A stretch of DNA of 64,000 bases from a virus (lineage: Duplodnaviria; Caudoviricetes). The notes beneath the pieces are model-generated. The model was not told where the DNA came from. It did no database searches and saw nothing but the letters and a program-made list of their open reading frames with translations. Below, piece after piece: positions 45,998 to 64,000 of this stretch. The stretch is from positions 187,550 to 251,549 of the IMG/VR virus record IMGVR_UViG_3300021431_004083; one strand, written 5' to 3'. The position numbers and the translations under genes are program-made. Each line of letters opens with the position of its first letter. The first letter of the stretch is position 1.

Positions 45998-46028
45998 ATT
46001 CCGCAGAGGCAAAACAGTCTCTGCGGAA
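45998..46028 (+). repeat. TTCCGCAGAG/CTCTGCGGAA hairpin, module H (also at 61626-61657 and 63188-63219; half copy at 59916-59933)
   Basis: conserved inverted repeat lying just after a stop codon or just before the TCAGTCAATC box. Confidence 0.8.
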
Positions 46029-46046
46029 CACTTTTCAATCAAATTT

Positions 46047-46448
46047 TCAGTCAATCATATAATTAAAATGCGATATGAAACAATCTCTGCTAAACAGTAC
46101 CGTTGAATGTCAGTGCTCGCAGAGCGTACATTAAACAAAGATGTGCTAAACAGTATCGCAAAATATCGGTGCTTGCAAAGTATAAGGTTCAAAATTGACA
46201 AATTATGACCTTTCGGTCTATACTGAGTCTATTTAAACACAATTTCAGTCAATCATATAATTAAAACACGGTGTAAAATAATCTCTGCTAAATAGTACCG
46301 TCAAATATTGGTACTTGCAAAGAGCTATGTGTTTTTCGGCATGACTGCTAAATAATACCGTCAAACGTCAATACTCGCAAGGTGCAGAGGATTGTGAATA
46401 GTTGGTTCGACAGCTAAACAATACCGTTAAATGTCGATACTTGCAAAG
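46047..46448 (+). repeat. two mini-arrays of a 37-nt hairpin repeat (copies at 46088, 46144, 46286, 46346, 46412), each array led by TCAGTCAATC-N25-AATCTC
   Basis: consensus TGCTAAAYAGTACCGTCAAATRTCGGTRCTTGCARAG; spacers of 19, 23 and 29 nt. Confidence 0.85.
46195..46224 (+). promoter_or_regulatory. sigma-A-like promoter between the two arrays
   Basis: TTGACA-18 bp-TATACT. Confidence 0.55.
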
Positions 46449-46465
46449 GAAAGGGAATCAACATC

Positions 46466-47065
46466 ATGAACGAAAAAATCACAGAAATGCTCGATACTAC
46501 CATCGAGACCTTACGCCATATCAACGCAGACGCAACAAGCATCTTCAACGTCATTCTGAACATCTGGGTGACGGCAATCCATAACAACAACGACATTTTG
46601 GTCAGGCTTTTCACCTTACGTAAGGAGCTTATGAGACTTCCATACGCCGACAGTCTTGTACCGTTGAAGCTCAGCTTCAACGATAACGGCACGACATACG
46701 TAATACTCCTTCATTTCGCAACTGAAATGATTGAACTCAGAGCACATGACGCCGCGACCAATGCCGAAGAGTTCAGTGTCCTTATCACCAATGAGCCCAC
46801 AGGGTACAGACTGAACCTTACTTGGTTCGGTAAATACGAAAACGCCATCACGGCGATATTGACACCGAATACTACGGTGACAGAGCCTTTGCCTGCAGAA
46901 CTGCGTGATATAAAAGGCATCGCATCTTTGTCCAACATGTATAAGCTCCAGAACAAGCTGTACAGAACAATCCACGTTTACAAAAAGACCATTACAGAAA
47001 AGCTGATTTCTCAGCTGAAATGGTACACGGACGCCGAGACATTAATCGAATCGGAATCACGCTAA
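46466..47065 (+). CDS. hypothetical protein
   Basis: RBS directly follows the last repeat. Confidence 0.7.
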   Translation: MNEKITEMLDTTIETLRHINADATSIFNVILNIWVTAIHNNNDILVRLFTLRKELMRLPYADSLVPLKLSFNDNGTTYVILLHFATEMIELRAHDAATNAEEFSVLITNEPTGYRLNLTWFGKYENAITAILTPNTTVTEPLPAELRDIKGIASLSNMYKLQNKLYRTIHVYKKTITEKLISQLKWYTDAETLIESESR

Positions 47066-47097
47066 AAAAGAGAAACTCTCCTGTAGCAAACACAATT

Positions 47098-47164
47098 TCA
47101 GTCAATCATATGATAAAAAACAATCTCTGCTGAATAGTACCGTCAGATGTCGGTGCTCGCAGAG
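47098..47164 (+). repeat. leader box plus single 37-nt repeat
   Basis: TCAGTCAATC-N14-AATCTC, repeat at 47128-47164. Confidence 0.85.
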
Positions 47165-47211
47165 GCGCACGAAATGATTCACCAATTAAAAAAAAGAAGA
47201 AAAGGAAAAGA

Positions 47212-47700
47212 ATGATGTTATCCAAAGACACTATCAAAAAAGCAATCAATGACGGAATCATCACTTTCGTCGCTGACCCTACAGCTGAGAGCGGCACCGT
47301 CTGTAAAATCGGTAACAACTGGTTCTACTTCGGCGGACAGACGGCTGAACAATACAATCCTAATGACTACCTGAGGTATGCCGATATTGATGATATCGTC
47401 AACAATATCTACGAAGTGCTTGATGAGTTTTCAAGACTGGACATGTTCCATGACGAATATCTCTATTATGAAGCCTATATCACGCATAACCTAAAGGTCA
47501 AGAATGACACCATCACAGTTGAAGCTGACAATATCGACAAGGCTGAATACGATATTCTGCTCCTCAACGTCGATATGAAGCTTCCGTGGTCTGACTTACT
47601 CCAAAGAGTCAAAACACCCAATCTGTCATTGACAGACGCTGCCGTACTCTACGGGCGTATTATATCAAGACCGATAAACAGGGAGGCTACAAATGTCTAA
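47212..47700 (+). CDS. hypothetical protein
   Basis: ORF with RBS. Confidence 0.7.
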   Translation: MMLSKDTIKKAINDGIITFVADPTAESGTVCKIGNNWFYFGGQTAEQYNPNDYLRYADIDDIVNNIYEVLDEFSRLDMFHDEYLYYEAYITHNLKVKNDTITVEADNIDKAEYDILLLNVDMKLPWSDLLQRVKTPNLSLTDAAVLYGRIISRPINREATNV

Positions 47701-48313
47701 AATCTATAATACCCGTCCCAAGCTTATCACGCCGGGTTCATTCTTTTTCGAGCCGAACAAAGACTATAATCTTGAAAACATAGAGAACAGTCTGCTCGTT
47801 CCGGCAAACGTCACATTCGCAACACTAATAGGATATAACGGTATCGTAACACTCGAAACACGCGGTTCAATTTACATTGAATACGTATCACCTAACGAAC
47901 CGTACTCCGTAAAAGAGTTCACTGACCCGTCAGAATATCCTGAAGAGCTGAAAGAGATATTCAAAACCAATGACGTTGATAAATTTGTCAAATATGTTAA
48001 CGTCATCAACAGCAACTGGTTCGAGATATTTTATCAGCCGTTCGACGCAGACGGAAATCTGACGCCCAGTATCAGTTCATTTGATATCGACGCGGAAGGT
48101 CTCAACGAAAGAGACATCTTTGAAGAAATGCGTAAGTATTACATTGAACAGCAGTCAGAAAACGAGACAGAAAACAACCGAAAAGAAGTTTTCTATTGTA
48201 ACTGTTGCGGCGAAGAATTCACATCAAATAACGACACCGTTATCTGTCCGAACTGCGGTTGCGAATATGACGAAGATAACAACTTCATCGAAAAATATTA
48301 CACTAAAAATTAA
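47693..48313 (+). CDS. hypothetical protein with C-terminal zinc ribbon
   Basis: CNCC...CPNC motif. Confidence 0.7.
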   Translation: MSKIYNTRPKLITPGSFFFEPNKDYNLENIENSLLVPANVTFATLIGYNGIVTLETRGSIYIEYVSPNEPYSVKEFTDPSEYPEELKEIFKTNDVDKFVKYVNVINSNWFEIFYQPFDADGNLTPSISSFDIDAEGLNERDIFEEMRKYYIEQQSENETENNRKEVFYCNCCGEEFTSNNDTVICPNCGCEYDEDNNFIEKYYTKN

Positions 48314-48345
48314 CAATCTCTACTATAATAAAGGAGTAAGTAGAT

Positions 48346-48840
48346 ATGCTCGTAAATAACGACATTCAGTCAATTCTCATCGAAAAGTTCGACAAAACAG
48401 ACCCCTGCACAAAAGAAGAAACCATTATTGCGTCCGGTGCGCCTGACGACATCAATCTGTCGGAAATCCTTGACAGACTGATTTTCAGTGCGGGACGTTT
48501 CTGCCAAAGATACGCATCCGATATGTTTATCTCATGGCAGTACGTACTCAACGCAATCAAAAACGGAACCGAGCCTCGTCAGGTGCTTATGCTCGCGACA
48601 AGACGCTTCGGCGTCGATGGGGATGACTTCATCATGTGCAATCTCGATAACATGCACCGTTATGCCGAAGTCTTCTTGATTGATATCAACAGGAAAAGCA
48701 GTCCGATTGAAGGCTTTGTTGACGTGACGCTGAAAACCGCTGTCGGGACATCATGGTTTCCCGCTGAAAAGTTAAGAGCCGCCAAAGACGCTCAGTTAAA
48801 AGCTGCCAAAGAGGCACAAAAGGAGAGCAAAAAATCATGA
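48346..48840 (+). CDS. hypothetical protein
   Basis: AGGAG RBS. Confidence 0.7.
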   Translation: MLVNNDIQSILIEKFDKTDPCTKEETIIASGAPDDINLSEILDRLIFSAGRFCQRYASDMFISWQYVLNAIKNGTEPRQVLMLATRRFGVDGDDFIMCNLDNMHRYAEVFLIDINRKSSPIEGFVDVTLKTAVGTSWFPAEKLRAAKDAQLKAAKEAQKESKKS

Positions 48841-48992
48841 ACGAAACCAAACTCAAAATCTATCCTGAAATAGGCGACGCCTATACGGTCACTGTCAACA
48901 TCCCTGAAAGCACAACCGACATCGAGGAATGGATTGACAGTTGGATAGATGACAATTTGAAACTCGTACAAAACTACGAGATTCTCGGCTAA
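48837..48992 (+). CDS. 51-aa acidic protein absent from the ORF track
   Basis: ATGA overlap with the upstream gene, AGGAG RBS, MNETKLKIYPEIG...YEILG. Confidence 0.6.
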   Translation: MNETKLKIYPEIGDAYTVTVNIPESTTDIEEWIDSWIDDNLKLVQNYEILG

Positions 48993-49007
48993 GAAAGAGA
49001 AGAGTCC

Positions 49008-49514
49008 ATGAAAGTCAACGTAGCACAATTCATGCTCAGTTGGACAGCCGCAAGCAATTATGAGCTTGAGCTGCCCGAGCACATTGATATTAACAACAGT
49101 GATGATATTGAAAAATATATTAATAGCATCATCAATTTTATCCCTGCGCCAAAAGACTCGATTGAAATCAGTCATACGAGAAAAATCATGGATAACATTC
49201 CCGTCAAAATTATTCAAAAAGAAGCCGGTATCAAAAACATCGGCACGGGAATCGTTTCGAACTGCCTATCCGTACCGCGCATGGAATTCGAAGAAACAGT
49301 CGAAACCATCTTCGGTCATAATTATATGCTGAAAACAGACGATACCGGCGTCAATCTCAAACAAACAAACCCCAAAAAGAAAAGCTTCGGGCAGACAATT
49401 CTGGACAAAGATTTTAAAGCCAGACTCTCAGCTTTTTACGGCAGCGAAATTGTCAGCATTACCCGTGTCAATACCAAAAAAGGCACAATGTATCAAATCA
49501 CATTCGAACCATGA
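49008..49514 (+). CDS. hypothetical protein
   Basis: ORF in the gene run. Confidence 0.65.
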   Translation: MKVNVAQFMLSWTAASNYELELPEHIDINNSDDIEKYINSIINFIPAPKDSIEISHTRKIMDNIPVKIIQKEAGIKNIGTGIVSNCLSVPRMEFEETVETIFGHNYMLKTDDTGVNLKQTNPKKKSFGQTILDKDFKARLSAFYGSEIVSITRVNTKKGTMYQITFEP

Positions 49515-49708
49515 CCGACTTTAATTATGACATCTTGATAATAAGCGGAGCTATTATTGAATTTGCGGCAATAATGGTCGGACTGATATTGCTATATAAA
49601 ATAGGCGAAGTCAGAGACAAGACCAAATTGACAATCTTTGCAATTGTCTGTTTCTTCTTTTACTATATGGTGTTCATCAATCCATTTGTACTTCAATTAT
49701 TCAGTTGA
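49511..49708 (+). CDS. small two-TM membrane protein
   Basis: hydrophobic; ATGA coupling. Confidence 0.55.
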   Translation: MTDFNYDILIISGAIIEFAAIMVGLILLYKIGEVRDKTKLTIFAIVCFFFYYMVFINPFVLQLFS

Positions 49709-49746
49709 AGCACAAATATTACAAAAAATCAACAGGAGACATTCAA

Positions 49747-50379
49747 ATGTACAATATCCATCTCAAGCTCAAAGGTCTTGATAGGAATAACGTAGCGTTT
49801 ATCCTTTCAATGCTGAACACAGACAAAATCAAAAAGGAATACACGCCTGAGCACGATTCGACGTTATGGAAAGACTATGTCTTCCACTATGAGTCGCATG
49901 ACGGGCTTATCCGAAAGAACGGCTACTACGAAATATTGACAAAAATCATTACCATTGTCATCGAACAGCTGCTTAACGGCACCGTCTCCGGCGTAGCTCC
50001 GTGTGACAAAGAATGGGAGTTGTATATCAATTTCAAAAGCATCCCACCGATAGACACCTTATGTGTGCTCCTGAGAGCCCTTGCTTTCTTTATCATCGAT
50101 TATGATATTCCCATAATCCCCGCAAGGACACAGCATGAAGACATCACAGGAGTCATGCGATTTTCATATACACTCACAGCAACAGTATCGCAGCTTGTGG
50201 TGGAAAACATACTCCCGTACGCAAGACTCATACAAATCCTGAAAACATATATCGACAACGACGCCGAATACTGCGAAACGTCTGTCGTATACGACAAACT
50301 TGCGCATATTTGCGGCTGTTCACTCGACGAAATCAAGGCTCTCGGGTATGAGTACACCATCCCTGAAACCAAAAATTAA
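49747..50379 (+). CDS. hypothetical protein
   Basis: start refined behind AGGAG. Confidence 0.65.
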   Translation: MYNIHLKLKGLDRNNVAFILSMLNTDKIKKEYTPEHDSTLWKDYVFHYESHDGLIRKNGYYEILTKIITIVIEQLLNGTVSGVAPCDKEWELYINFKSIPPIDTLCVLLRALAFFIIDYDIPIIPARTQHEDITGVMRFSYTLTATVSQLVVENILPYARLIQILKTYIDNDAEYCETSVVYDKLAHICGCSLDEIKALGYEYTIPETKN

Positions 50380-50421
50380 CATCAAACAACTATGATAAAC
50401 ACAAAGGAGAATTAAACAACG

Positions 50422-50631
50422 ATGCCAAACTTTTTCGTAACATACAATGTAGACGGGCAGATCACAATTCCTGTGGCTGCCGAGAACTTCGAAGACGCAA
50501 TCAAAGCTGCCGACAAAAAACTGAGAACCGTTGACGTCGGCAACCTTGAAGGCGCTGACTATGAATATGCGTATACCGATGACGACAACGGCACAACTGT
50601 TGACGTCAATTCTGATTCATTTCCGGATTGA
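50422..50631 (+). CDS. small acidic hypothetical protein
   Basis: AGGAG RBS. Confidence 0.65.
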   Translation: MPNFFVTYNVDGQITIPVAAENFEDAIKAADKKLRTVDVGNLEGADYEYAYTDDDNGTTVDVNSDSFPD

Positions 50632-50685
50632 TATTTCGGGGGAGTTGGTGCTGTGACAACTAAATTTTAATAGGAGGTCGCAGAA

Positions 50686-51072
50686 ATGGTTACTGTCACA
50701 AATATCCGAAAGGCTAAACCCGAAGATTTTGACGAAATTTGGGCTATCGTGCGCTCACTGAAATCCAAGTCATCATATCTCATACAAGTCCCGGAACTCA
50801 GTCCGTCATGGGATTTGTTCAAAACATATTTAAAACTGAGAGATGACGGCAACTGGAATAAACAAACGTTCGAGACAATCTATAAACCCAGATTTCTTTC
50901 ACAAATCGCAAATGACGCAACAGCGTCAAAAAAGCTGACAGAACTCATGCAAAAAGACAAGGAAGGCAAGAAAATCGCACTCGTGTGTTTCTGTACAAAC
51001 CCGTCCCTCTGTCATCGTAGTCTTATCGCACAAATATTAGCGAACTACGGCATTCAGACAACATTGTCTTGA
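50686..51072 (+). CDS. DUF488-family protein
   Basis: ELSPSWDLF...IALVCFC....CHRSLIA motif. Confidence 0.75.
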   Translation: MVTVTNIRKAKPEDFDEIWAIVRSLKSKSSYLIQVPELSPSWDLFKTYLKLRDDGNWNKQTFETIYKPRFLSQIANDATASKKLTELMQKDKEGKKIALVCFCTNPSLCHRSLIAQILANYGIQTTLS

Positions 51073-51116
51073 CAACTCTACAGCCATCAATACAAAAAAG
51101 AAAGGACTGTTCCTAT

Positions 51117-51725
51117 ATGGACGCGAACCCCAATCAGTACAAACTGGATTTCATTGAACGTATGTGCGAACACGGCAGAAAGAGTTTCGAAAATTTCGAA
51201 CCTCATATTATCGAAAACAATGACACGGTACAAATCATTGAATGGTCAAACAAGAACGGAAGCTTTGAATATCGTATCCGTTTTGTTTTTGATATCAACA
51301 CAGGTCATATGTTCGTGTCGGGAGACCTCGGCTCAGCTGTGTTTTGCTTCACAGAAAAAGCACAGTTCGAAAAAATCTCCAGATATTCTGATTTTAACTA
51401 TTTCCGTGAAAAGATGCAGTGTTCGACTAATATCACGGAATACGATTCAAAATACGCTCGCTTACAGCTTGAAGAAAACCTCAGTGTCGAAAACGACATA
51501 AACGAGCCTGATATCCAAACGCTCATTCGTGAAATTTTACAGGAAGCTGACCAATACGACGGAAACCCTGTATACTCCGATTATGTCATTGACAAACTCA
51601 AGGACTACGACGAAGATTATTGGGAGTGGCTCTATGGTATTGGAATGCTTCCTCACAAAAGAATCATCCTTTGGTGGGAAGCCCTTCACGAAATCAGAGC
51701 TCATCTTGAAAAAGGAGAACAATAA
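51117..51725 (+). CDS. hypothetical phage-type protein
   Basis: VSGDLG...YF.EK pattern; start refined. Confidence 0.65.
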   Translation: MDANPNQYKLDFIERMCEHGRKSFENFEPHIIENNDTVQIIEWSNKNGSFEYRIRFVFDINTGHMFVSGDLGSAVFCFTEKAQFEKISRYSDFNYFREKMQCSTNITEYDSKYARLQLEENLSVENDINEPDIQTLIREILQEADQYDGNPVYSDYVIDKLKDYDEDYWEWLYGIGMLPHKRIILWWEALHEIRAHLEKGEQ

Positions 51726-52354
51726 TGATATTCACAAAAGAAAAACTGTCGTCGGAATATATCTATGTATGCGACGACGGCACAAAGCTCATGTATCGTG
51801 ACGGATATTTCATGGAATACAAACCTGTAAGTCATGATACTATTCAGGATTTACTCGGAAAAACAGATGAGACAAGCACAAAACCGATGCCTGTATTTTC
51901 TGACTACCGTAACGACCTGACACATAAGTACGACAGGGACAAAACCATTATGTACGTTTACGGTCTGAAAGTTATGGCAAAGCATTTTCCCGGTAACATT
52001 CCCGACTACAATGACTGCGTTATGCTGTACAAAAGACAGACAACCGACAGCAGTCTCACCGAAAGCGCTGCAAAAACACAGTGCTTCCGCTACACCTACG
52101 GGTCATCATCGGTGTTCCCGTTTTACGGTGGTTGGACCGAAATCGTAGCCCCTACGAGAGAACTCGCCGACGCGCTATTCATCGCTCTGCATCCGAGCAA
52201 AGACGGTACGTTGTTAAACTGTTCGTCTATTTACGATGAAAAACAATGGACCGGCACAGAAATGTGTAAACATAACGATAATATGGGCGCCCATTGTCAC
52301 GAAAAATACGTCATCACACAGGAGTTCGGACCGATGCTGCTCGGAAACCGATAA
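51725..52354 (+). CDS. hypothetical protein
   Basis: coupled ORF. Confidence 0.7.
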   Translation: MIFTKEKLSSEYIYVCDDGTKLMYRDGYFMEYKPVSHDTIQDLLGKTDETSTKPMPVFSDYRNDLTHKYDRDKTIMYVYGLKVMAKHFPGNIPDYNDCVMLYKRQTTDSSLTESAAKTQCFRYTYGSSSVFPFYGGWTEIVAPTRELADALFIALHPSKDGTLLNCSSIYDEKQWTGTEMCKHNDNMGAHCHEKYVITQEFGPMLLGNR

Positions 52355-52357
52355 CTA

Positions 52358-52410
52358 TCAGTCAATCATATCAACAAAAAAAACACTACAATCTCTGCTA
52401 AAAAGCAAAG
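52358..52410 (+). repeat. leader box plus truncated hairpin
   Basis: TCAGTCAATC-N22-AATCTCTGC-TAAAAA-GCAAAG. Confidence 0.7.
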
Positions 52411-52438
52411 CTAAAAAGCATAGGAAAGGAAAGTAACA

Positions 52439-53182
52439 GTGATTATTAACAATACAAACGAAAACACCCCGGCACTACCGTTTACCGTATTCTATGACGT
52501 CGAAACGGATAAGTCTGACGGTTACATTGACCTCAATGATAACTTATTTGCCACTGTCGACAACGACATGGCAAAATATGTCACATCCGGCACAATCAAT
52601 CTCTACATGGCACACAAAGAACAGGGCAACGCCGAAAACACACGTGACATCATGAGCAAAAAGGCTCGCTGTCACAGTCCTATCGGTCAAATCAGTTTCG
52701 TTGCCTTCAACGAGAATGCCATCAAAGAAGACTCGAAAAGTCTCGAAAGCCTTGCGTATGAGCACACAACAGGCAGCGAAAACCGTCCGTTGGAATGCAT
52801 TGACGGGCAGTCTCTTATGTCCTTGAGACGGGCAAACAAAGACGCGGACAAAACAATGTTCATCATTGAACTGTCAAGCTTCCATTGCAGCAAAGGTGTC
52901 ACCGAAGATGTATTCGAACACATCTTTGCCCATCTCCCCGACATTTTCAGACTCGCTCTCAATATGAACCCGCATCTGTTCGTCACCACCATTCCGCTTG
53001 AACAAAAAGACTTCCAATTTGACGAAGGTTACACAGTTGCATACGATATGCAAAAAAGTTTCTTATTACGTATGAACTTCCTTCCCACAGAAAAGAAAGA
53101 CGTCTACGTCATGAATGTATCGATGCACGAACCGTTTAAGGATGTCTTCGGTCCGACAAGCATTCGCTTCTATCTCAACTAA
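52439..53182 (+). CDS. hypothetical protein
   Basis: 247-aa ORF. Confidence 0.7.
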   Translation: MIINNTNENTPALPFTVFYDVETDKSDGYIDLNDNLFATVDNDMAKYVTSGTINLYMAHKEQGNAENTRDIMSKKARCHSPIGQISFVAFNENAIKEDSKSLESLAYEHTTGSENRPLECIDGQSLMSLRRANKDADKTMFIIELSSFHCSKGVTEDVFEHIFAHLPDIFRLALNMNPHLFVTTIPLEQKDFQFDEGYTVAYDMQKSFLLRMNFLPTEKKDVYVMNVSMHEPFKDVFGPTSIRFYLN

Positions 53183-53203
53183 AAATACAGGAGGACAAAT
53201 ACC

Positions 53204-53449
53204 ATGTCAGATAAAAACTACTACGAGGTCATGGTTGACCATTCAACCTTTTCGACAGCAAAATGGGCGGTTGTCAGCTACCCGAAGGACAAATGTGTTG
53301 AGAACGGTAAGCCTATCAGCAATGAAAAGCTTGCACAAAGACTGCTCGCCATCATTTCAAGAAAAACAGGTTTGTCAAATCTTGTCAGCCATTCGGTCAC
53401 ACTTCTCGGCGACGATGTCATCATAATTGATGACGAACCCGTTGAGTGA
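53204..53449 (+). CDS. hypothetical protein
   Basis: GGAGG RBS. Confidence 0.65.
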   Translation: MSDKNYYEVMVDHSTFSTAKWAVVSYPKDKCVENGKPISNEKLAQRLLAIISRKTGLSNLVSHSVTLLGDDVIIIDDEPVE

Positions 53450-53504
53450 ACCGCTCGGCAACAAGTAACCGAGAATTCTCATCGGAAATTCTTAACAAAA
53501 AAAA

Positions 53505-53699
53505 ATGAACAATAACAATACACAAAATGACCAACCAACAAAGAAACAACTCGATTTCATAGCTGATATACAAGAATTTACAGGAACACTGTTTACAGGC
53601 TCAACAAAAGCTGAAGCCTCGAAATATATTTCTGACAATATCGAACGATATCGGCTTGAAATCGCGAGTTCTTGGGTCTTATCAGGCGGTTATTTCTAA
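53505..53699 (+). CDS. small hypothetical protein
   Basis: PTKKQLDFI...TKAEASKYI helical motif. Confidence 0.6.
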   Translation: MNNNNTQNDQPTKKQLDFIADIQEFTGTLFTGSTKAEASKYISDNIERYRLEIASSWVLSGGYF

Positions 53700-53721
53700 A
53701 ACGAAAAAAGGAGAATATAAA

Positions 53722-54012: not shown

Positions 54013-54077
54013 TCAGTCAATCAATATCACAAAAAATCTCTGCTAAATAGTACCATCAAACGTCGGTGCTTGCAGAT
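54013..54077 (+). repeat. leader box plus single 37-nt repeat
   Basis: TCAGTCAATC-N12-AATCTC, repeat at 54041-54077. Confidence 0.85.
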
Positions 54078-54814: not shown

Positions 54815-54855
54815 TCAGTCAATCAATATCACAAAAAATCTCTACTACAGTAGAG
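54815..54855 (+). repeat. leader box plus minimal hairpin with compensatory change
   Basis: TCAGTCAATC-N12-AAT-CTCTAC-TACA-GTAGAG. Confidence 0.7.
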
Positions 54856-55845: not shown

Positions 55846-56496
55846 ATGAAATTCAACAAAACATTCACCCTTGCACGAAGTGTACAGTACAAAGAAAAAA
55901 ACGGGTCTTACCGAATCGCTGCATATGGCTGCTCTATCGATGGCAACATCTTAAAACAACAACACGGCTCTTATATTCGACCGAACATGGCGGGACCGTT
56001 CTATTACGCATTAGGATTTAGTGCAACCGATGATTACTGCGCTCTGTTCGTTGTGGACCCGAGAAACGGCAGCACCATAGACGCGGTGCTTGTGAAAGAC
56101 CTCGGCTTGCGACACGCAAAACTCGAAAATCCCATACGCAACACAGACTTTTACGTTCCCGGTTTTATCGAAGAGTGCATCCAATGCTACGAAGACTCTA
56201 ACAATTTCGAAAGAGCCGTTATTACGGCACAAGAAATCGAATGCGACTACAAATCAGCTCTGTTTGCTTACAAACAACTGATTAAATACTACTGTCGCTT
56301 AAGTGACGAATCCGTTGAAGCCTATTTGAAATTCAAAGGCATTCACGACTTATCAAGCGACAACATGTCTCTGAAGCTCAAAAACGCCTTAGAGCTTGCA
56401 GCGGAAAATATAACCGACTATGATGCTATCGAAAAAGCCGTACCGTCAACAAAAGAATACATCGAAAAGTACAAACTGAAACGTCGCCGTAAATAA
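55846..56496 (+). CDS. hypothetical protein
   Basis: preceded by TTGACC-17 bp-TACAAT at 55765-55793. Confidence 0.7.
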   Translation: MKFNKTFTLARSVQYKEKNGSYRIAAYGCSIDGNILKQQHGSYIRPNMAGPFYYALGFSATDDYCALFVVDPRNGSTIDAVLVKDLGLRHAKLENPIRNTDFYVPGFIEECIQCYEDSNNFERAVITAQEIECDYKSALFAYKQLIKYYCRLSDESVEAYLKFKGIHDLSSDNMSLKLKNALELAAENITDYDAIEKAVPSTKEYIEKYKLKRRRK

Positions 56497-56518
56497 CGGC
56501 ACGAAGGAACAAAAACGT

Positions 56519-57001
56519 ATGCTGTACACACAACTAACGAAAAAGGCTATCAACATAGCTTACAACAAACATAACGGACAAATAGGGAAAGACGGTATTC
56601 CCTATTTCTGCCACCCGTACCATGTGGCAGAGCGCGTAGATGAGCTTTGTGAAAGAACAAATATGTCCAAAAAAGAGCACGAAGCCCTCATTTGCATAGC
56701 ATTTTTGCACGATATCCTCGAAGATACAGACACAACCGTCAACGAATTATATGGGGAAGGGTTTTCTGACAACATAGTCCACGCCGTTATAGCATTGACA
56801 CGGCGAAAAAGAGAAACCTATCAGGACTACATAGAACGCTGCAGGGAAAATACCTATGCAACTGTCATCAAAACATTTGATTTGATTCATAATATGAACC
56901 TAAATCGACTGGACGCTCCGACTGACGTCGACAAAAAACGCTATGAAAAATATAAAAAGGCACTCGACCTTCTCAACACATCAAAGGAGGACGAATCGTG
57001 A
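56519..57001 (+). CDS. stand-alone HD-domain hydrolase, SpoT/Mesh1-like
   Basis: AYNKHNGQ..KDGIPYFCHP, FLHDILEDT, VIALT and IK..DLIHN motifs. Confidence 0.85.
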   Translation: MLYTQLTKKAINIAYNKHNGQIGKDGIPYFCHPYHVAERVDELCERTNMSKKEHEALICIAFLHDILEDTDTTVNELYGEGFSDNIVHAVIALTRRKRETYQDYIERCRENTYATVIKTFDLIHNMNLNRLDAPTDVDKKRYEKYKKALDLLNTSKEDES

Positions 57002-57378
57002 AACGAATTCTTACACTCTTGATTGCGATATGTATATCAGTAAGCATATTCACAGCTTGCTCCTTAAACAAAAAAGAAGTAAGCCGTGAGTTGGTCAACG
57101 CGAGATATACACCCGCTCACTCGTCCACAAAGACAGACTACGAATACAAATACAACTGGAACAAAGACGAATACAAATATGTTCCCGGCATAAAATATGT
57201 CGACGAACCCGAGAAATACGAGTTCGAATATATCGTCACATATGATGACGACACAACACGACATGTATTCGAAACCGTTACAAAAGAAGCATATAATGAA
57301 TATATGAAATCCAAATGGTTCAAAGATTTCAGTAAACCTATTGTGATTGAAACCCAACCACCAACCGAAACGCCATAA
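56998..57378 (+). CDS. lipoprotein
   Basis: signal peptide with FTAC lipobox. Confidence 0.7.
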   Translation: MKRILTLLIAICISVSIFTACSLNKKEVSRELVNARYTPAHSSTKTDYEYKYNWNKDEYKYVPGIKYVDEPEKYEFEYIVTYDDDTTRHVFETVTKEAYNEYMKSKWFKDFSKPIVIETQPPTETP

Positions 57379-57395
57379 AAGGACTGTGATGCTCT

Positions 57396-58208
57396 GTGAG
57401 ATTATATTTGCTGTTGCCGCTGTTAACAGAAAACGCAGCTATCATAAAAATAGTCAGCGGAAAAAATAACCGCAAACTATATGAAGGCTTGTTCCAAAGC
57501 ATGCCGACGGAACTGCGTTTACTTGACATAGAAGAAATACTTCCTTACAAAGTCATCAGACGTAAAAATATAAACACGACCAAAGCACAATACGGCATCT
57601 GTTTTGTCACAAACAAAAAAGACAAAACAACAAGGGCTCACATAGAACATATCGGCGAAAAACAGACCATGAAAAATGGTCATAAAGCACAAGTAACATC
57701 CTATAATTCCGCAACAGACATCACAATTACGTTTGACGACGGCACTGTCAGAGAACATCAAAGATATCACGATTTCACTCATGGAGAAATCAAACATGAG
57801 TCTGAATTACCCGGTCGTGTAAAACCAGAAAACCATACGGGAGAAACGTCGGTATCCAACAAAGGTGAAAACATCACCATTGTGAAATATCTCAACAATC
57901 AATATATGAATGTTCAGTTTGATGACGGAACGATTGCGTACGGCGTCAACTATTACGCATTCGTGCACCGCAAAATAGTCAAACCGGACTATAAGCATTA
58001 CAAATGGTTCATCGCGCAAGAAAACACCGAGCCCGAGCCAATACAACTGCAGGATGTAATTGACATCATAACGAACGACCGTACATTAACGCCCAAAGAA
58101 CAATGCGCAAAGCTCGGAGTTATCACTCACGGTAAAAAGTCCAAAGACGTACAGATTTTTGTTCTACATAAAAACGTCAAATGCCAAATCATTTGCGTCA
58201 AAGACTGA
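57396..58208 (+). CDS. protein with duplicated FDDGT module; paralog of 38235-39080
   Basis: HIGEK...ITITFDDGT and HTGET...VQFDDGT repeats. Confidence 0.7.
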   Translation: MRLYLLLPLLTENAAIIKIVSGKNNRKLYEGLFQSMPTELRLLDIEEILPYKVIRRKNINTTKAQYGICFVTNKKDKTTRAHIEHIGEKQTMKNGHKAQVTSYNSATDITITFDDGTVREHQRYHDFTHGEIKHESELPGRVKPENHTGETSVSNKGENITIVKYLNNQYMNVQFDDGTIAYGVNYYAFVHRKIVKPDYKHYKWFIAQENTEPEPIQLQDVIDIITNDRTLTPKEQCAKLGVITHGKKSKDVQIFVLHKNVKCQIICVKD

Positions 58209-58507
58209 AAAGGAGACAATATATGTCACAAACGGCAAACGAAGAAAAAATAACATATTTTCTTCTTATCAAAACTGATACAAGTATAAAAAGCATCGCA
58301 GCACACACAACAAATGAAGTGATGGAGCTCGTAAAAAAGCTCACTGAAAAAGCAAAACCTGATACAAGAAAAAGAATTTGTACAGCAGTCGAAACAATTC
58401 TCCCCTGTATGGAGCATATCAGCACCATACAAATGACATTCCCCGATTCGAGAATTGACATCTCAATTATTTCGACTGTAACGACAACAGAAAAAAAGGA
58501 GGACTGA
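58181..58507 (+). CDS. hypothetical protein (likely start at 58223)
   Basis: AGGAG RBS before MSQT. Confidence 0.6.
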   Translation: MPNHLRQRLKRRQYMSQTANEEKITYFLLIKTDTSIKSIAAHTTNEVMELVKKLTEKAKPDTRKRICTAVETILPCMEHISTIQMTFPDSRIDISIISTVTTTEKKED

Positions 58508-58508
58508 C

Positions 58509-58985
58509 ATGAATTCGGAAATCGTATATGGCTTCGGATTTTCCGTCCCTGCCCATAACCCCGACCTTTTCAAAAAGTTCATTCTCAATCACCAAAAGGC
58601 AATTGAAGAACAGGGAACACCGGAGGAAAAAAAGCTGTTGAGTATAGCAAAGTTCGACAAGAACTACTCATTTGACTACGATGACATCGACGAGAACTTT
58701 TGGCTCGAAAGTACAGTCAACCAACAGGAAGGACCTCATGCCATCATCGGAAACATCATTCAGTACGAAACATGCATTCGTATGCAATACGAACCCGGTG
58801 ACGGTGACACCGACAGCGACCCCGCAATCATCTTTGCTCGCGGATACCCTTGGGAGTTAAACGCAACAGAGAAAAACTTGCGAGAAGAATCCTTCAGAAA
58901 TCTCTTGTACAAATATCTCAGAGAGCTCGACAGCGCGGCGTCTATCACTGACGTCGATACAATTCGTATTGAATACTACTGCTAA
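58509..58985 (+). CDS. hypothetical protein
   Basis: GGAGG RBS. Confidence 0.7.
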   Translation: MNSEIVYGFGFSVPAHNPDLFKKFILNHQKAIEEQGTPEEKKLLSIAKFDKNYSFDYDDIDENFWLESTVNQQEGPHAIIGNIIQYETCIRMQYEPGDGDTDSDPAIIFARGYPWELNATEKNLREESFRNLLYKYLRELDSAASITDVDTIRIEYYC

Positions 58986-59000
58986 AAAGGAGGTTTTGAT

Positions 59001-59447
59001 ATGGAGACAACAAAAATCAACGCCTTCGGTGTCGTACTCGACTCTGATAGACTAAAAGAAAATTTCGTCCCATTCCTCTGCACACACTTGATGACAAGCG
59101 AACGCTATGAAGAGTATATCAACTACTGCAAGGACGAAAACTTAGAGCCCGGCGACGACAAAAGCTTCTACCTGTATGCCAGATATGATTGCGGCGACTA
59201 TGCGTGGGAAATCATGACCTGCCTTGTTCATATCCTCAACGAAAAGAACAACCTCACTCTGGATATCAACAAGCTCCAATATTATAACTATTGCGTTTAC
59301 TACGAGAATCTCGTGCCTGCAAACGAAGAAGAACGCAAGCTCATACTGACAAAGGAACAGGTCCAAAAGCTCATCGCGGACTTCTTCAAGCCCATCGTCA
59401 AAGAAAACACACCTTTATGGTGTGAAAGTCTTGACATTGACTATTAA
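59001..59447 (+). CDS. hypothetical protein; tandem paralog of 59457-59903
   Basis: shared YI.YCK.., KSF..YA and ILT..QVQ...A.FF segments. Confidence 0.75.
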   Translation: METTKINAFGVVLDSDRLKENFVPFLCTHLMTSERYEEYINYCKDENLEPGDDKSFYLYARYDCGDYAWEIMTCLVHILNEKNNLTLDINKLQYYNYCVYYENLVPANEEERKLILTKEQVQKLIADFFKPIVKENTPLWCESLDIDY

Positions 59448-59456
59448 AAGGAGGAC

Positions 59457-59903
59457 ATGAACATGTACGAAGCCGTCACAAGGTTCGGAATCGAAATCAC
59501 CCCATGTGATTTGAGACCGGACTTTCTGTTGCTAATGTTTGCCTACTTTATGGACACTGACGACCGTCAAAGCTATATTGATTACTGCAAAGAAAACAAA
59601 ATCAGCTGTGATGACCGAAAGTCGTTCATTGATTATGCGAACTCAAAACATACGACACTCGCTTTTCACAACAGCATGATGCAGGAAATCGTTAACATTT
59701 TCAACAAACAGTATGACCTGTATGACGAACTGAAATTTCAGTATCATGACGAACATGTCTTTTACGAATGCGGCATACCTGAAGACGATTCCCAAAAAGA
59801 ACGCATTCTGACACAAAAGCAGGTGCAAAACATGCTTGCGCAGTTCTTCGGAAAGCTCGTCAAAGACGATATCTCGCTGACCTGTCAATCTATTAGCATT
59901 TAA
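59457..59903 (+). CDS. hypothetical protein; tandem paralog of 59001-59447
   Basis: same length (148 aa) and shared motifs. Confidence 0.75.
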   Translation: MNMYEAVTRFGIEITPCDLRPDFLLLMFAYFMDTDDRQSYIDYCKENKISCDDRKSFIDYANSKHTTLAFHNSMMQEIVNIFNKQYDLYDELKFQYHDEHVFYECGIPEDDSQKERILTQKQVQNMLAQFFGKLVKDDISLTCQSISI

Positions 59904-60142
59904 ACAAAAATCCACAATTCCGCAGAGGCAAAAGCACATATAAAACCTTCCAAACCCAGTATGCCTATACTGCTCCCAACGGCAGCATTTACTTCTATTG
60001 TGAATGCCAGAAATGCGGTCTAAAGAAGAACCTTGCCACTCAGAAATTGATTCCACAAAAACAATCAAAAACATAACTGCCGGAGACGGCAGACTTGAAA
60101 AGTGCATCCGAATCGAATTGTGAAATATGAAAGGATGAAATA

Positions 60143-61300
60143 ATGAGTAAGGAAACATTTTATAAGAATAATAGAAGAAGCATAAAGGATATCCCTCTGG
60201 ACGTTATCGAGCATGCGTTGAAAGATAACAGTTCTAAAATAAGACAGGTGGCTATGAACGCTTGTCAGGGTAGAAACGTACCTCTGGACGTTATCGAGCG
60301 TTGGCTGGACGATAACAATTGCTACGCAAGACAGGCCGCTATGAACGCTTGTCAGGGTAGGGATATACCTCTGAACATTATCGAGTGTGGATTAGAGGAT
60401 GCCGATTGGAGAGTTAGACGAGCGGCTATGAACGCTTGTCAGGGTAGAAACGTACCTCTGGACGTTATCGAGCGTTGGCTAAACGATAAAGATTGGAAAG
60501 TAAGACAGGCTGCTATGAACACTTGTCAGGGCAAAGACGTACCTTTGGAAGTTATTGAGCGTGGATTAAAAGATGACGATTGTAACGTAAGATGTGCTGC
60601 TATGAAGGCTTGTCGAAGCATGGATATCCCTCTGGAAGTTATCGAGCGTTGGCTAAGAGATAACAATCCCAACGTTAGACAGGCGGCTATAAACACTTGT
60701 CAGAACAAAGACATACCTTTGGACGTTATCGAGCGTTGGCTGAACGATAACGATTGCAACGTAAGATGGGTGGCTATGTGCGCTTGTCAGACCAGAGACA
60801 TACCTATGGACGTTATCGAGCATTGGTTGAGAGATAACAATTGTAAAGTAAGAGAGGCTGCCATAAACGCTTGTCAGACAAGAGATATCCCTCTGGACGT
60901 TATCGAGCGTTGGCTGAACGATAACAATTGCGACGTTAGACAGACTGCTGTTTACTATTGCGAACAGAAAGGGATTGAGATTCCTACTATTCGTACTATT
61001 GAACCGCCCGAAAAGGTTTATAAAAAATGTTTGAACGATGTAATCGTAGTAGCTACAATTCCTTATGATGCTGAAGTTAGAGGAAATTATAATGGAAAAT
61101 GTCGTGCTAATAAGGCGAAAATTATTGATATTATCGGAGACTTTTATGGGAAAAAAATCGGAATTTCAACTAATGATTACACTACTGCTTATTTCATTGG
61201 CGATAAAATAGTTATTAACAATTTCGATAAGAGTTTCAAAAAATGTTCAACAGGTTTCCACTTCTTCTGCACACGCGAACAAGCTGAAAATCATGATTAA
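60143..61300 (+). CDS. HEAT-like repeat protein (nine 29-aa units) with DUF5758-like C-terminal domain
   Basis: repeat DIPLDVIERWLND....VRQAAMNACQ; C-terminal KCRANKAKII...CSTGFHFF. Confidence 0.8.
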   Translation: MSKETFYKNNRRSIKDIPLDVIEHALKDNSSKIRQVAMNACQGRNVPLDVIERWLDDNNCYARQAAMNACQGRDIPLNIIECGLEDADWRVRRAAMNACQGRNVPLDVIERWLNDKDWKVRQAAMNTCQGKDVPLEVIERGLKDDDCNVRCAAMKACRSMDIPLEVIERWLRDNNPNVRQAAINTCQNKDIPLDVIERWLNDNDCNVRWVAMCACQTRDIPMDVIEHWLRDNNCKVREAAINACQTRDIPLDVIERWLNDNNCDVRQTAVYYCEQKGIEIPTIRTIEPPEKVYKKCLNDVIVVATIPYDAEVRGNYNGKCRANKAKIIDIIGDFYGKKIGISTNDYTTAYFIGDKIVINNFDKSFKKCSTGFHFFCTREQAENHD

Positions 61301-61389
61301 TTGGAATTGTAAATGTCAAAAACGCAGTCTGAAGAAAAATCTCACAGCTTTGGAGCTTATTAATCTAAATCACGTATGCTAAAACAAAA

Positions 61390-61417
61390 TAACCCCCGTC
61401 ATATGAGACGGGGGTTA
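61390..61417 (+). terminator. probable terminator hairpin
   Basis: TAACCCCCGTC/GACGGGGGTTA inverted repeat. Confidence 0.6.
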
Positions 61418-61625
61418 ATATTATGACCGTACAAATATAAATTGCTATCAAATGAATGCGCAAAATTTGAAACAATAAGAAAGGAGCTTGTACGTATCAT
61501 GCAAAATAATAAAACTTAACTGTTTGTTAAAATATGTTGTGCATCATATACTTGTGCATTCTCAGGCAACACAATACGAGGCAACAATGATTTAACATCA
61601 TATTAGTATCTGAACAAAAATCCAC

Positions 61626-61819
61626 AATTCCGCAGAGGCAAAACCGTCTCTGCGGAAAATTTCTCAAACATAACTTTCAGTCAATCATACAATCAAAACG
61701 CAGTAAAACAATCTCTGCTGAACAGTACCATCAGACATAGGTGCTTGCAGAGTCTATCAATTCCAACATATTATCTTGGAATACTGAATAGTACCGTCAA
61801 ATGACGGTCAAGTGCAAAG
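61626..61819 (+). repeat. hairpin H, leader box and two repeats (61716, 61782) with a 29-nt spacer
   Basis: same modules as 45998-46180. Confidence 0.85.
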
Positions 61820-61829
61820 GAAGAGAACA

Positions 61830-62318
61830 ATGCAAGAATTTTCCACAAAAACAGAAAAAACCATAAAGACAGGATTAACAATCTCACCTTATCATCTCAA
61901 AGAAGAAACGCGAAAAACCTATATTTACCCTGTCATAGCTGAAGCAGGCACAGTCGAAGCGCCACCAAACCGACTACCCAAAGGGTTCAATCTTTTCGCA
62001 TCCGCTGAAGACCTGTCTCAGGTAATAATCACTGTGCCGTCAGGCGAAATCGGATATGAAGAAGACAAGTTAACAGCCTTCTATTGTCCGAAAGACCTTT
62101 ACCGCTTGCTGCAATATGCTCACAGCAGACAAATAGACTTCATTGTCATCCCGCACGAAGACCATGTCTTGCGCAGCTTCTTCAGCAACAAAGCAAACAA
62201 TAACATCGACATCATCACAGAGGCAACGGTACAGAATGCCATATCAGATGACATTGCAAGCTTGCCTTACTATGACACGCCATCTGTCGAAAAACTCATT
62301 CAAAAGCTCAGTCAATGA
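61830..62318 (+). CDS. hypothetical protein
   Basis: start refined; stop codon overlaps the leader box (TCAGTCAATGA). Confidence 0.7.
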   Translation: MQEFSTKTEKTIKTGLTISPYHLKEETRKTYIYPVIAEAGTVEAPPNRLPKGFNLFASAEDLSQVIITVPSGEIGYEEDKLTAFYCPKDLYRLLQYAHSRQIDFIVIPHEDHVLRSFFSNKANNNIDIITEATVQNAISDDIASLPYYDTPSVEKLIQKLSQ

Positions 62319-62467
62319 TATAATAAAATTGTGGTATAAAACAATCTCTGCTATATAATACCGTCAAATGTCGGTACTTGCAGAGTACCGATTCCCACGT
62401 GGATATGCTAAACAGTACCATCAAATATCGGTGCTTGCAAAGAAATCATTGAACAGCACCGTCAAAT
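62308..62467 (+). repeat. leader box, two repeats (62349, 62406) with a 20-nt spacer, and a partial third copy
   Basis: matches the 37-nt consensus. Confidence 0.85.
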
Positions 62468-62481
62468 AAAGGAGATAAAAG

Positions 62482-63180
62482 ATGCTCATAAAAATATATA
62501 TGAAAGATGGTGAAGAATTCACCGTCAATGCCTGCACGTCCTCTGCAAGATTATGGGTGCACCAACACCTAAAGCTGGAAAACGTAGAAAGTTTTACGGA
62601 AATACCGCCTGAAAAGATTTATTACTATGTAGAAATCACAGAACGTGAAATTATCGAATTCATTCCGTTCGACAGCAAAGAAGTTGCCGTAGCGCATCTT
62701 CATCAAAAGTTCCTCAACCGTATCAAAACAAAGGTTAACGATTTCAACTTCAGTCTGGACTTTCCAATTCAAAAAGACGACTACGGTTTATCCGAAGACC
62801 ATGCGTGGATTAACGACCTCCCTCTCATGCATAACGACTGGGACGCTTATATCATCGTAAACGACAGAAAAAACGATACCGAAGAAAGCCGTAGATTTAT
62901 TGAACAGGCTATAAAGGAACCCTATCTGTTCCTCAACAATGCGTTATATGAAAACTTACTGAAAGCAGCTTTTCATAAAAACGCCATCAAAAACACGCAC
63001 CCCAACATGGGCATCACAACAGACATCATGGATGACGACGGTGCCACAATTGATATCCGCACAACAACAGAGACATGTTCCAGACTGTCCTCATACCTCG
63101 GTATGAAGATTATCGGATTAAAACCGACTGTATATAACAACGTCAACGGTGTGGCTCTGCTGTGTGAAAATAAAAACTAA
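62482..63180 (+). CDS. hypothetical protein
   Basis: AGGAG RBS. Confidence 0.7.
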   Translation: MLIKIYMKDGEEFTVNACTSSARLWVHQHLKLENVESFTEIPPEKIYYYVEITEREIIEFIPFDSKEVAVAHLHQKFLNRIKTKVNDFNFSLDFPIQKDDYGLSEDHAWINDLPLMHNDWDAYIIVNDRKNDTEESRRFIEQAIKEPYLFLNNALYENLLKAAFHKNAIKNTHPNMGITTDIMDDDGATIDIRTTTETCSRLSSYLGMKIIGLKPTVYNNVNGVALLCENKN

Positions 63181-63187
63181 AAAACAC

Positions 63188-63315
63188 AATTCCGCAGAGA
63201 CAATCTTGCCTCTGCGGAACATTTTTTAAACACAACTTCAGTCAATCATATAAGCAAAACGCAATATAAAATAATCTCTGCTATATAATACCGTCAAATA
63301 TAAGTACTCGCAAAA
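63188..63315 (+). repeat. hairpin H, leader box and single repeat (63279)
   Basis: same modules as above. Confidence 0.8.
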
Positions 63316-63353
63316 AATCTACCCACAAAATAAAAAAAAGAAAGGACACGGCT

Positions 63354-63650
63354 ATGCCCGACAATAATAAAATCATTGTTGATATCAATGACCGTTTTCA
63401 ACTGGTTGCTGCACTAAATGATTGGGACCCTAACGCCAAAGAATTGGCTGAAATCTCAGTTTTCTTACAAGAAAAAGCAACAGGGATAATCCATCAGGAC
63501 CTTGCCATCATCGGACGCAACTACAGAATGACAGACAACGGACCTGAATTATATGACGACCTGTCGGTAAAAGTCTATGCCGATGCAAACAACGAAGACT
63601 TTACAGATGACTTCACTATTCCTATTTACGAAGAGCCCGAAGAAGATTAA
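63354..63650 (+). CDS. hypothetical acidic protein
   Basis: AAGGA RBS. Confidence 0.7.
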   Translation: MPDNNKIIVDINDRFQLVAALNDWDPNAKELAEISVFLQEKATGIIHQDLAIIGRNYRMTDNGPELYDDLSVKVYADANNEDFTDDFTIPIYEEPEED

Positions 63651-63686
63651 CATATTCTTCATAAACCCCCCTTTTCAAACATAATT

Positions 63687-64000
63687 TCAGTCAATCGTAA
63701 AATTAAAGTGTAATACAAAACAATCTCTGCTAAATAGTACCGTTAGATAACGGTGCTTGCAAAGAACGACCCGATCTGGCAATTTGCTGAATAGTAACAT
63801 CAGCACTTACAAAAAGAAAAAAAATTATCACACGAATTTCAGTCAATCATATAGTTAAAGTACGGTATAAAATAATCTCTGCTAAATAGTACCGTTAGAT
63901 AACGGTGCTTGCAAAGAACGACCCGATCTGGCAATTTGCTGAATAGTAACATCAGCACTTACAAAAAGAAAAAAAATTATCACACGAATTTCAGTCAATC
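63687..64000 (+). repeat. 152-bp-period tandem of leader, repeat, spacer and degenerate repeat, running off the window
   Basis: 63722-63848 is identical to 63874-64000; full repeats at 63728 and 63880. Confidence 0.9.

Follow-up and report, generated by a model that had tools for sequence, protein, structure and literature searches.

Dispersed hairpin repeats of a rumen viral element as probable loop-expanded Cas12a handles on its own transcripts

Among the closest described RNAs to the repeats reported here are CreR/CreA, Cracr (bioRxiv 10.1101/2024.10.29.618823) and Racr (PMC10651486), which occur as solitary or few-copy units resembling the repeats of CRISPR arrays, have their own promoter and sometimes a terminator, and serve regulation, not cleavage. 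They reside on mobile elements; it is established that viruses and plasmids can carry solitary repeat units mimicking CRISPR repeats (PMC10651486), and in a type V-A example from rumen Ruminococcus, the Ruminococcus Cas12a is hijacked by a phage RNA that resembles a CRISPR RNA (crRNA) and consists of one pseudo-repeat, a short spacer and a terminator (bioRxiv 10.1101/2024.10.29.618823). Nuclease-free, DNA-binding effectors of type V are also known, namely Cas12c (bioRxiv 10.1101/2021.12.06.471469), Cas12m (PMC11013384) and TldR (PMC10705468), the last found on prophages with a single guide. Here we analyzed a 64,000-nt stretch, referred to as the window, which comprises bases 187550 to 251549 of the 251,549-bp IMG/VR record IMGVR_UViG_3300021431_004083, a virus assigned to the Caudoviricetes (Duplodnaviria); coordinates marked "genome" refer to the whole record. 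The window carries a dispersed family of 37-nt hairpin repeats. Their probable explanation is that they are Cas12a handles with an enlarged loop, which would mark transcript 5' ends for a Cas12a that the element itself encodes and that has presumably lost its DNase activity.

A first-pass annotation of the window had listed 14 copies of the repeat, all on the + strand, and the repeat-family search recovered the same 14 (46088, 46144, 46286, 46346, 46412, 47128, 54041, 61716, 61782, 62349, 62406, 63279, 63728, and 63880), with 0 expected by chance. A degenerate 37-mer matched the window eight times when up to 3 mismatches were allowed, each time on the + strand, and shuffled sequence predicts 0.00 such matches. 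In the full record, fuzzy scanning found 17 copies and none on the − strand; copies beyond the window list lie at genome 121, 271, 136794, and 136963, the first two showing that the repeats run on over the circular junction. Runs contain one to three copies, with start-to-start distances of 56, 60, 66, 66, and 57 nt that correspond to spacers of 19, 23, 29, ~29–32, and 20 nt. The other reported features also held: an TCAGTCAATC(A/G)TATAAT-like block followed by AATCTC precedes the first copy of every run, the inner stem is of the AGTACCG/CGGTRCT type, and several runs stop 1–13 nt 5' of a ribosome-binding site (RBS). First copies are better preserved than later ones, with a mean of 6.3/7 inner-stem pairs vs. 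5.4/7 (p = 0.01) and 4.7 vs. 6.9 mismatches to the consensus (p = 0.006). Later copies are incomplete and have no AAUCUC 5' strand. Clear degeneration is seen in copies 46346 and 63279.

Taken together with AATCTC, the first copy of a run reads AAUCUCUGCU-[28-nt hairpin]-GCAGAG, so that the inner AGTACCG/CGGTRCT hairpin is enclosed by an outer stem of CTCTGC and GCAGAG (AATCTCTGC-T..[28 nt]..-GCAGAG). In this predicted fold, most of a 43-nt RNA element, AAUCUC|UGCU-[inner hairpin]-GCAGAG, is made up by the 37-nt repeat. Reference handles were taken from the arrays at three bacterial Cas12a loci, where all repeats end in AATTTCTACTATTGTAGAT and the handle is AAUUUCUACU-AUU-GUAGAU. Like this type V-A handle, the element's units possess an unpaired AAU, a 5-bp stem of UCU(A/G)C and G(U/C)AGA, and a loop that begins with U, and they stand directly 5' of variable sequence with a cas12a gene adjacent. 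They differ from the canonical handle at two to four stem or flank positions: C at −16 and G at −1 form a Watson-Crick pair in place of the canonical U.U, and most units have G-C at −12/−5. They also differ in their loops, which measure 4–54 nt over all units and 28 nt, with a hairpin of its own, in the 37-nt family, and the units do not conform to a short-loop, single-U handle. As a predicted structure, the 37-nt family is a long-loop subfamily of the Cas12a-type handle, in which a 28-nt hairpin replaces the 4-nt loop of the type V-A crRNA 5' handle.

This assignment is supported by units in which the loop is short. Short-loop versions of the motif head other genes at equivalent places (45303, 48315, 52390, and 54837), and outside the window we found TTCG, TATA, and GATT loops as well as loops of 16–23 nt. 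Exact matches to AATCTCTRCT-N(2-30)-GYAGAK number nine in the window, all on the + strand, where 0.00 are expected. An unbiased genome-wide search for TCYRC..GYRGA hairpins returned 17 that are preceded by AATC, all in gene sense, against ~0.4 expected. The first loop base is U in 16 of these 17 perfect-stem hairpins, and the stem is followed by a G that could pair with C(−16) in 14 and by a U in two. The unpaired AAU and the first-loop U, which are the pseudoknot partners, are present, while the fourth base is C, not U. A covariance model built from the three bacterial handles only and run over 88 kb on both strands placed four units from 5' untranslated regions (5'UTRs) at ranks 1–4. Stems vary between units in a compensatory manner (UGC/GCA, UAC/GUA, and CGC/GCG, with CUUUGC/GCAAAG in strain L056); UCUAC/GUAGA occurs in six units, UCUGC/GCAGA in most, and UCCGC/GCGGA in one. 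The inner hairpin was itself evaluated as a Cas12a handle (AAAY-stem-loop-stem-U) and rejected, as the equivalent of A(−18) is not conserved and the constant GCAGAG would occupy the seed.

The likeness to CRISPR remarked upon in the first-pass annotation is thus real and closer than it had supposed, with a Cas12a-type handle and a nearby cas12a, but the locus is not an adaptive array. The canonical AATTTCTAC..GTAGAT array was not found in the element. Unlike type V-A arrays, the element has no 36-nt repeat array, each unit has one promoter, and later copies do not carry the 5' strand; unlike type V-A loci, it has no cas1, cas2, or cas4, and its units sit in the 5'UTRs of protein genes. Of the proposed leader-repeat-spacer layout, the leader per run stands, but the full handle is confined to the promoter-proximal copy and the later copies appear to be decaying. 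An Rfam search, suggested at that stage as a check, gave no relevant match at E ≤1 across 44000–64000; since the core of the handle is that of a CRISPR repeat type already described, the repeats do not amount to an entirely new class of RNA.

The ends of the record share 89 identical bases, and the record is therefore a circular assembly; both the junction and the contiguity of the window with cas12a are confirmed by a sister contig that spans the region without a break. The earlier statement that the window holds no cas gene is accurate, but cas12a begins ~290 nt past its right end. The open reading frame (ORF; G000:C1:375-4127, or L017:375-4127) encodes a 1250-aa protein, P0001, which scores 917 bits against TIGR04330 (Cas12a/Cpf1; cut-off 300). 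In Pfam, REC1, REC2, RuvC_1, and NUC are over threshold and PI is under its cut-off. The best solved relatives of P0001 are Cas12a structures, and the nearest protein outside its own 90% cluster is ~35% identical. At least 15 variants conserve the gene at full length.

The RuvC-I catalytic Asp is replaced by Asn (N847, AINRGERN) in 15/15 clade members aligned, while 53/55 other Cas12a proteins have Asp at this position. The clade keeps the RuvC-II Glu, the RuvC-III Asp, and the Nuc Arg, which leaves the D-E-D triad incomplete. Substitution of the RuvC-I Asp by Ala abolishes DNA cleavage by Cas12a, and the element's Cas12a is probably DNase-dead via the D-to-N change. In the WED RNase region, two Lys positions are recognizable, and handle binding by P0001 is plausible. 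Cas12c, Cas12m, Cas12k, and TldR are likewise RuvC-impaired effectors under selection that bind and do not cut. In contrast to them, P0001 is a bona fide Cas12a by family model with one catalytic residue changed, and the element multiplies handles across mRNA leaders.

A gene of 688–698 aa that follows cas12a (L017:4249-6345) is conserved in every strain and could be a functional partner; the 698-aa product has no Pfam family and no atlas match. Two other Cas12a homologues without the RuvC-I Asp were found, on contigs L059 (Logan SRR17648377) and L060. One of the two, P0024 (D to N), is encoded on a contig whose small genes match no family, and the 10 kb upstream of its gene showed neither a handle-like motif nor a repeat family; the other, P0036 (D to S), has cas4-cas1-cas2 adjoining.

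The whole genome has approximately 30 units, each of which shares the strand of the gene behind it and lies 0–110 nt 5' of that gene's start codon. A −10-like TATAAT or TATGAT lies 7–20 nt upstream of the handles, from which we infer that a handle would start at, or no more than ~12 nt from, the predicted RNA 5' end. At least 10 units have an RBS that begins no more than 10 nt behind the handle, and in two units the RBS is inside the loop. In sister strains L020–L026, the mRNA leader of cas12a itself reads promoter-handle-AAAAGGAGAC-ATG. Some units have no ORF behind them, namely 46047–46180 and the tandem 152-bp units at 63687–63990 and across the junction (genome 80–230), and the unit at genome 169336 (− strand) carries a terminator behind it.

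These placements suggest how the system could work. Promoter-handle modules would lie within the first bases of ~30 transcripts, and their partner would be the element's own divergent Cas12a, encoded just downstream. Cas12a would be made early from a handle-tagged mRNA, bind the handle of each tagged transcript, and perhaps cut back the short leader. Cas12a binding would hide any RBS that abuts the handle or sits inside its loop, which could provide feedback on cas12a itself and a timed shut-off or stabilization of early genes. The ORF-less units (46047–46180, 63687–63990, and across the junction) may yield guide RNAs for DNA binding without cleavage. Translational feedback, or 5' processing or stabilization, of early mRNAs is proposed because the handles abut or enclose RBSs, that of cas12a included. 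The broader view, that a CRISPR effector has turned into a global post-transcriptional regulator in which the dead Cas12a reads handle tags on ~30 mRNAs, that of cas12a among them, and so governs their translation or stability, while a few ORF-less units still provide true guides, is put forward tentatively. Among the four alternatives raised in the first-pass annotation, processed small RNAs or CRISPR-repeat mimics and processing sites come nearest.

The MS2 coat-operator hairpin and T4 RegA/RegB are phage examples of translational operators and of early-mRNA shut-off. By analogy, an early protein would here bind an RNA element that lies at the RBS or covers it in many early mRNAs, among them the one that encodes the protein; the proposed binder differs in being a CRISPR effector and the operator in being a crRNA handle. 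CreR/CreA, Cracr, and Racr copy the host repeat and act via host Cas proteins on cas or toxin promoters, whereas the element has a diverged handle, its own dead Cas12a, and ~30 units that are mostly fused to mRNAs. No PAM (protospacer-adjacent motif)-flanked promoter seed match of 9–11 nt was seen within the element itself.

Several points weigh against handles that tag transcripts for Cas12a. The step to function is one that we infer from sequence, the inactivation of RuvC is presumed, and tolerance of a 28-nt loop insert by Cas12a is an assumption. The WED RNase His is not cleanly aligned and falls at a 6–8-residue deletion in P0001, so handle cleavage is uncertain. The E-values of the canonical-handle model are individually weak (0.1 to 3.7) because the model is only 19 nt long. 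An outer-stem C.A mismatch (3' strand GCAAAG) is present in 20/33 distinct long-loop copies (~60%), and in such copies folding alone yields no outer stem. Within the long-loop family, covariation does not exceed that of shuffled sequences, no partner is assigned to the inner hairpin's conserved loop (YCAAAU), and no protospacer was found in any search for any post-handle sequence.

In the literature searched, there was no report of a natural RuvC-dead Cas12a with a RuvC-I substitution kept across strains, and no description of handle loops up to 54 nt, of one promoter per handle, or of ~30 handle-bearing mRNA leaders. If handle tagging is correct, the element would hold the first natural RuvC-dead Cas12a found described and the first crRNA handles that act as operators within numerous protein-coding mRNA leaders. 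It would add a new re-use of CRISPR parts by mobile elements to those of TldR, Cas12k, Cas12c/m, and the Cre/Cracr RNAs, and provide a testable system of one protein and a 19–43-nt RNA tag for nuclease-to-regulator evolution. It would also show to what extent the handle loop of Cas12a can grow in nature, which is useful for crRNA engineering.

The units could instead be mainly guide-RNA genes, in which promoter, handle, and spacer give a crRNA that steers dead Cas12a to host or competitor DNA (CRISPR interference, CRISPRi) and the position in 5'UTRs is incidental. The ORF-less units and the terminator-bearing unit at genome 169336 (−) fit such a role, as do the retained REC, PI, and Nuc domains of Cas12a and the precedent of the DNase-free, DNA-binding Cas12c, Cas12m, and TldR. 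We nevertheless consider it unlikely, since no protospacer beyond chance came to light. The element's own genome has none at ≤4 mismatches, with 12-nt seeds, or with 9–11-nt seeds plus TTTV; IMG/VR has no exact 20–22-mer match, GenBank phages searched by blastn with the array regions gave none at E ≤10, and JGI metagenomes gave none. GTDB genomes returned two spacer matches, in metagenome-assembled genomes of a peat Acidobacteria and a Fidelibacterota (one soil, one marine), where ~1 is expected by chance. The spacer comparison proposed at the outset has pointed to no DNA target in phages or the other collections. Furthermore, the "spacer" of most units is an RBS in a 5'UTR, some are duplicated RBS-ATG fragments, and neither cas1 nor cas2 was found in the element.

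Strain comparisons bear on the same question. Sister strains from cattle and sheep rumen metagenomes have conserved genes and leaders that are not. The 19–30-nt "spacers" differ between strains at one locus, as guides might: the 232-aa gene (62308–62442 locus) is preceded by four different repeat-spacer sets. Strain L019 has an extra repeat and 29-nt spacer inserted between AATCTC and the 63273 copy, at the leader-proximal end, which would also suit guide-RNA genes. In some strains it is the 232-aa gene that has the 22-nt "spacer" CAAACTCACCATAGGATTCTTG in front of it, and in another strain it is the 98-aa gene (L020/L026 and L056 compared with window 62308–62480 and 63238–63350); repeat-spacer blocks therefore move between leaders. 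Such turnover resembles the outcome of recombination between scattered units more than that of adaptation by Cas1-Cas2, and the later copies are best explained as decaying remnants left when units were duplicated and recombined with each other. The cassette-recombination sites suggested in the first-pass annotation have some support in this shuffling of blocks between loci, but only as a by-product. The turnover of blocks before conserved genes offers a natural experiment on leader evolution. In sister strain L026, an IS605 OrfB/TnpB-family gene is inserted in the same early-gene region (268–1386, −).

The promoter-handle module was found only in this rumen clade among the sequences searched. 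GenBank phages contain no near or distant DNA relatives, and no Cas12a relatives were confirmed in IMG/VR by peptide patterns. The repeat pattern gave 0 matches in IMG/VR, where the element's own clade may be hidden. In metagenome contigs, the promoter-handle pattern had 25 matches, of which three are real and represent sister strains and the rest are chance, with no distant relatives of the module.

A further possibility is that the units are RNA anti-CRISPRs of the Racr/Cracr kind, in which abundant early handle RNAs soak up or re-program host Cas12a and the dead Cas12a is an accessory or decoy. Precedent exists in the established solitary repeat mimics (PMC10651486) and in the RNA that hijacks Ruminococcus Cas12a (bioRxiv 10.1101/2024.10.29.618823). 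The unit at genome 169336 (−) has the pseudo-repeat, short spacer, and terminator layout of the phage Cracr example, rumen samples are the source of the element, which has a dockerin gene, and outside the loop no more than one or two positions set units with the UCUAC/GUAGA stem apart from the canonical handle. Even so, we judge the idea improbable. The handles have a cognate partner in the element's own full-length Cas12a, with its at least 15 variants; the differences of most units at −16, −1, and −12/−5 look more like divergence from host systems than like mimicry; and handles abutting the element's own RBSs would let host Cas12a silence element genes.

Stem-loops at mRNA 5' ends protect transcripts from 5'-end-dependent decay in Firmicutes. 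The hairpins could accordingly be generic 5' leader structures, or operators for another RNA-binding protein of the element, with the likeness to Cas12a handles a coincidence. Their place at the extreme 5' ends of transcripts, the inner hairpin with its conserved YCAAAU loop that is present even where the outer 5' strand is missing, and the weak covariation statistics would all be compatible with this. A stabilizer, however, needs no unpaired AAU, first-loop U, or UCURC/GYAGA stem, all of which are Cas12a-handle features, and an orphan cas12a with no other candidate repeat would be left unexplained. We hold this explanation, too, to be improbable.

N4 promoter hairpins are similar in size to the 6-bp outer stem with a 4-nt loop, and the element's 2037-aa protein, with the beta-prime motif DFDGD and a predicted likeness to fused Rpb2/Rpb1, provides a lead, yet the hairpin-promoter option of the first-pass annotation is very improbable, given that the loop of 4–54 nt has no fixed geometry, a conserved sigma-70-like −10 TATAAT lies 7–20 nt upstream of the hairpin, tandem later copies ≤60 nt apart would be senseless as promoters, and initiation downstream of the hairpin would remove the RBS that in several units stands right after or inside it.

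The units of the long-loop family described next all lie on the + strand. Unit 1 has a promoter-like leader, TCAGTCAATCATATAAT, at 46047..46063 and a complete long-loop handle, AATCTCTGC-[28 nt]-GCAGAG, at 46082..46124 with no ORF behind; nested outer and inner stems are present in its minimum-energy fold. A 19-nt "spacer" with no match elsewhere in the element (46125..46143) and a secondary copy without the AATCTC 5' strand (46144..46180) follow. Just 5' of unit 1, at 45999..46028 (+), sequence reading and repeat-family analysis identified a terminator-like hairpin, TTCCGCAGAG..CTCTGCGGAA, that closes the upstream gene. Similar terminator-like hairpins were located near 61624–61655 and at 63189–63220, the latter scored terminator-like. 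These hairpins 5' of promoters (TTCCGCAGAG/CTCTGCGGAA) share the words CUCUGC and GCAGAG with the handle stem, in swapped order, which may reflect coincidence, common ancestry, or alternative pairing in read-through RNA. A near-consensus sigma-70 promoter, TTGACA-18-TATACT (11/12), lies between units 1 and 2 at 46195–46224, inside what would otherwise read as the second "spacer" of unit 1.

Unit 2 has the same promoter-like block as unit 1 (46245..46261; sigma-70-like 10/12, TTTAAA-18-TATAAT). Its first copy (46280..46322) ends in the 3' strand GCAAAG, which produces a C.A mismatch in the outer stem, and is followed by two secondary copies (46346..46448; 46346–46382 and 46412–46448) with a 29-nt spacer between them, the second of which abuts the RBS GAAAGGG of a gene starting at 46466. 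A single unit at 47098..47164, kept in sister contig L047, has a −10-like TATGAT just 7 nt 5' of AATCTC and a perfect long-loop handle (47122–47164), then the 5'UTR of a gene at 47212. At 54013..54077, the variant leader TCAGTCAATCAATATCAC precedes a long-loop handle (54035–54077) that ends in GCAGAT. The unit at 61677..61819 consists of a promoter, a first copy (61710–61752), a 29–32-nt spacer, and a variant secondary copy (61782–61819) that abuts the RBS GAAGAG of a gene at 61830. A promoter, a perfect first copy (62343–62385), a 20-nt spacer, and a secondary copy (62406–62442) make up the unit at 62308..62442, after which comes the 5'UTR of the 232-aa gene.

Toward the right end of the window, a promoter and a degenerate first copy with a broken inner stem (63273–63315) occupy 63238..63315. 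The stand-alone 152-bp unit at 63687..63838, with no ORF, contains a promoter, a handle (63722–63764), and the 20-nt spacer AACGACCCGATCTGGCAATT, and ends with a degenerate short copy (63786–63817). A second, tandem stand-alone unit (63839..63990) has its handle at 63874–63916. The next unit starts at 63991 and crosses the circular junction; two more units and then cas12a follow.

Short-loop units were also all on the + strand. Two such handles lie in the 5'UTR of a gene at 45388 (45254..45321), one being AATCTCTAC-N9-GTAGAG (45254–45277) and the other AATCTCTGC-TAAA-GCAGAG (45303–45321), and both are matched by the bacterial-handle covariance model. The best match of the canonical-handle model (19.8 bits) is the handle at 48315..48345, AATCTCTAC-[16 nt with the RBS AAGGAG inside]-GTAGAT, where the ATG of a 164-aa gene is the very next base after GTAGAT; this unit is kept in L047. 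At 52358..52410, an TCAGTCAATC promoter precedes AATCTCTGC-TAAAAA-GCAAAG (52390–52410), 28 nt 5' of the start codon at 52439. A variant leader and the handle AATCTCTAC-TACA-GTAGAG (54837–54855) form the unit at 54815..54855, which is identical in L019; this handle equals the canonical Cas12a handle at 15/19 bases, with two of the four differences in the loop. An imperfect short-loop handle, AATCTCTGC-TATG-GCGGAA, is located at 43181..43199, 22 nt 5' of a start codon.

With regard to the element as a whole, Terminase_6N, HK97 capsid, and AAA_10 were absent in family searches, and VirD4 and relaxase appeared only below threshold. A dockerin-bearing surface protein is encoded at 1506–2660 (−) and, together with the sample names, suggests a rumen Clostridia/Ruminococcus-like host. 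The 2037-aa ORF at 16816–22929 (−) has AGDFDGD at residues 1532–1538 and no Pfam or PHROG match; its best ESM-atlas feature matches are fused Rpb2_6+Rpb1_2 RNA-polymerase-like clusters (score 0.85), so that the element probably encodes a polymerase of the multisubunit type in a single chain here. The window further encodes a primase-family (D5-like) protein (30658–32268), an RtcB-type RNA ligase (36848–37966), and an ORF matching HEAT repeats and DUF5758 (60143–61300) with at least seven tandem 87-nt (29-aa) repeats at 60187–61008. Near a switch in gene orientation, a 48-nt element is present in two copies (30189–30236 and 30317–30364) 128 nt apart, with a short inverted repeat, CAAACAT..ATGTTTG, followed by 8–10 T.

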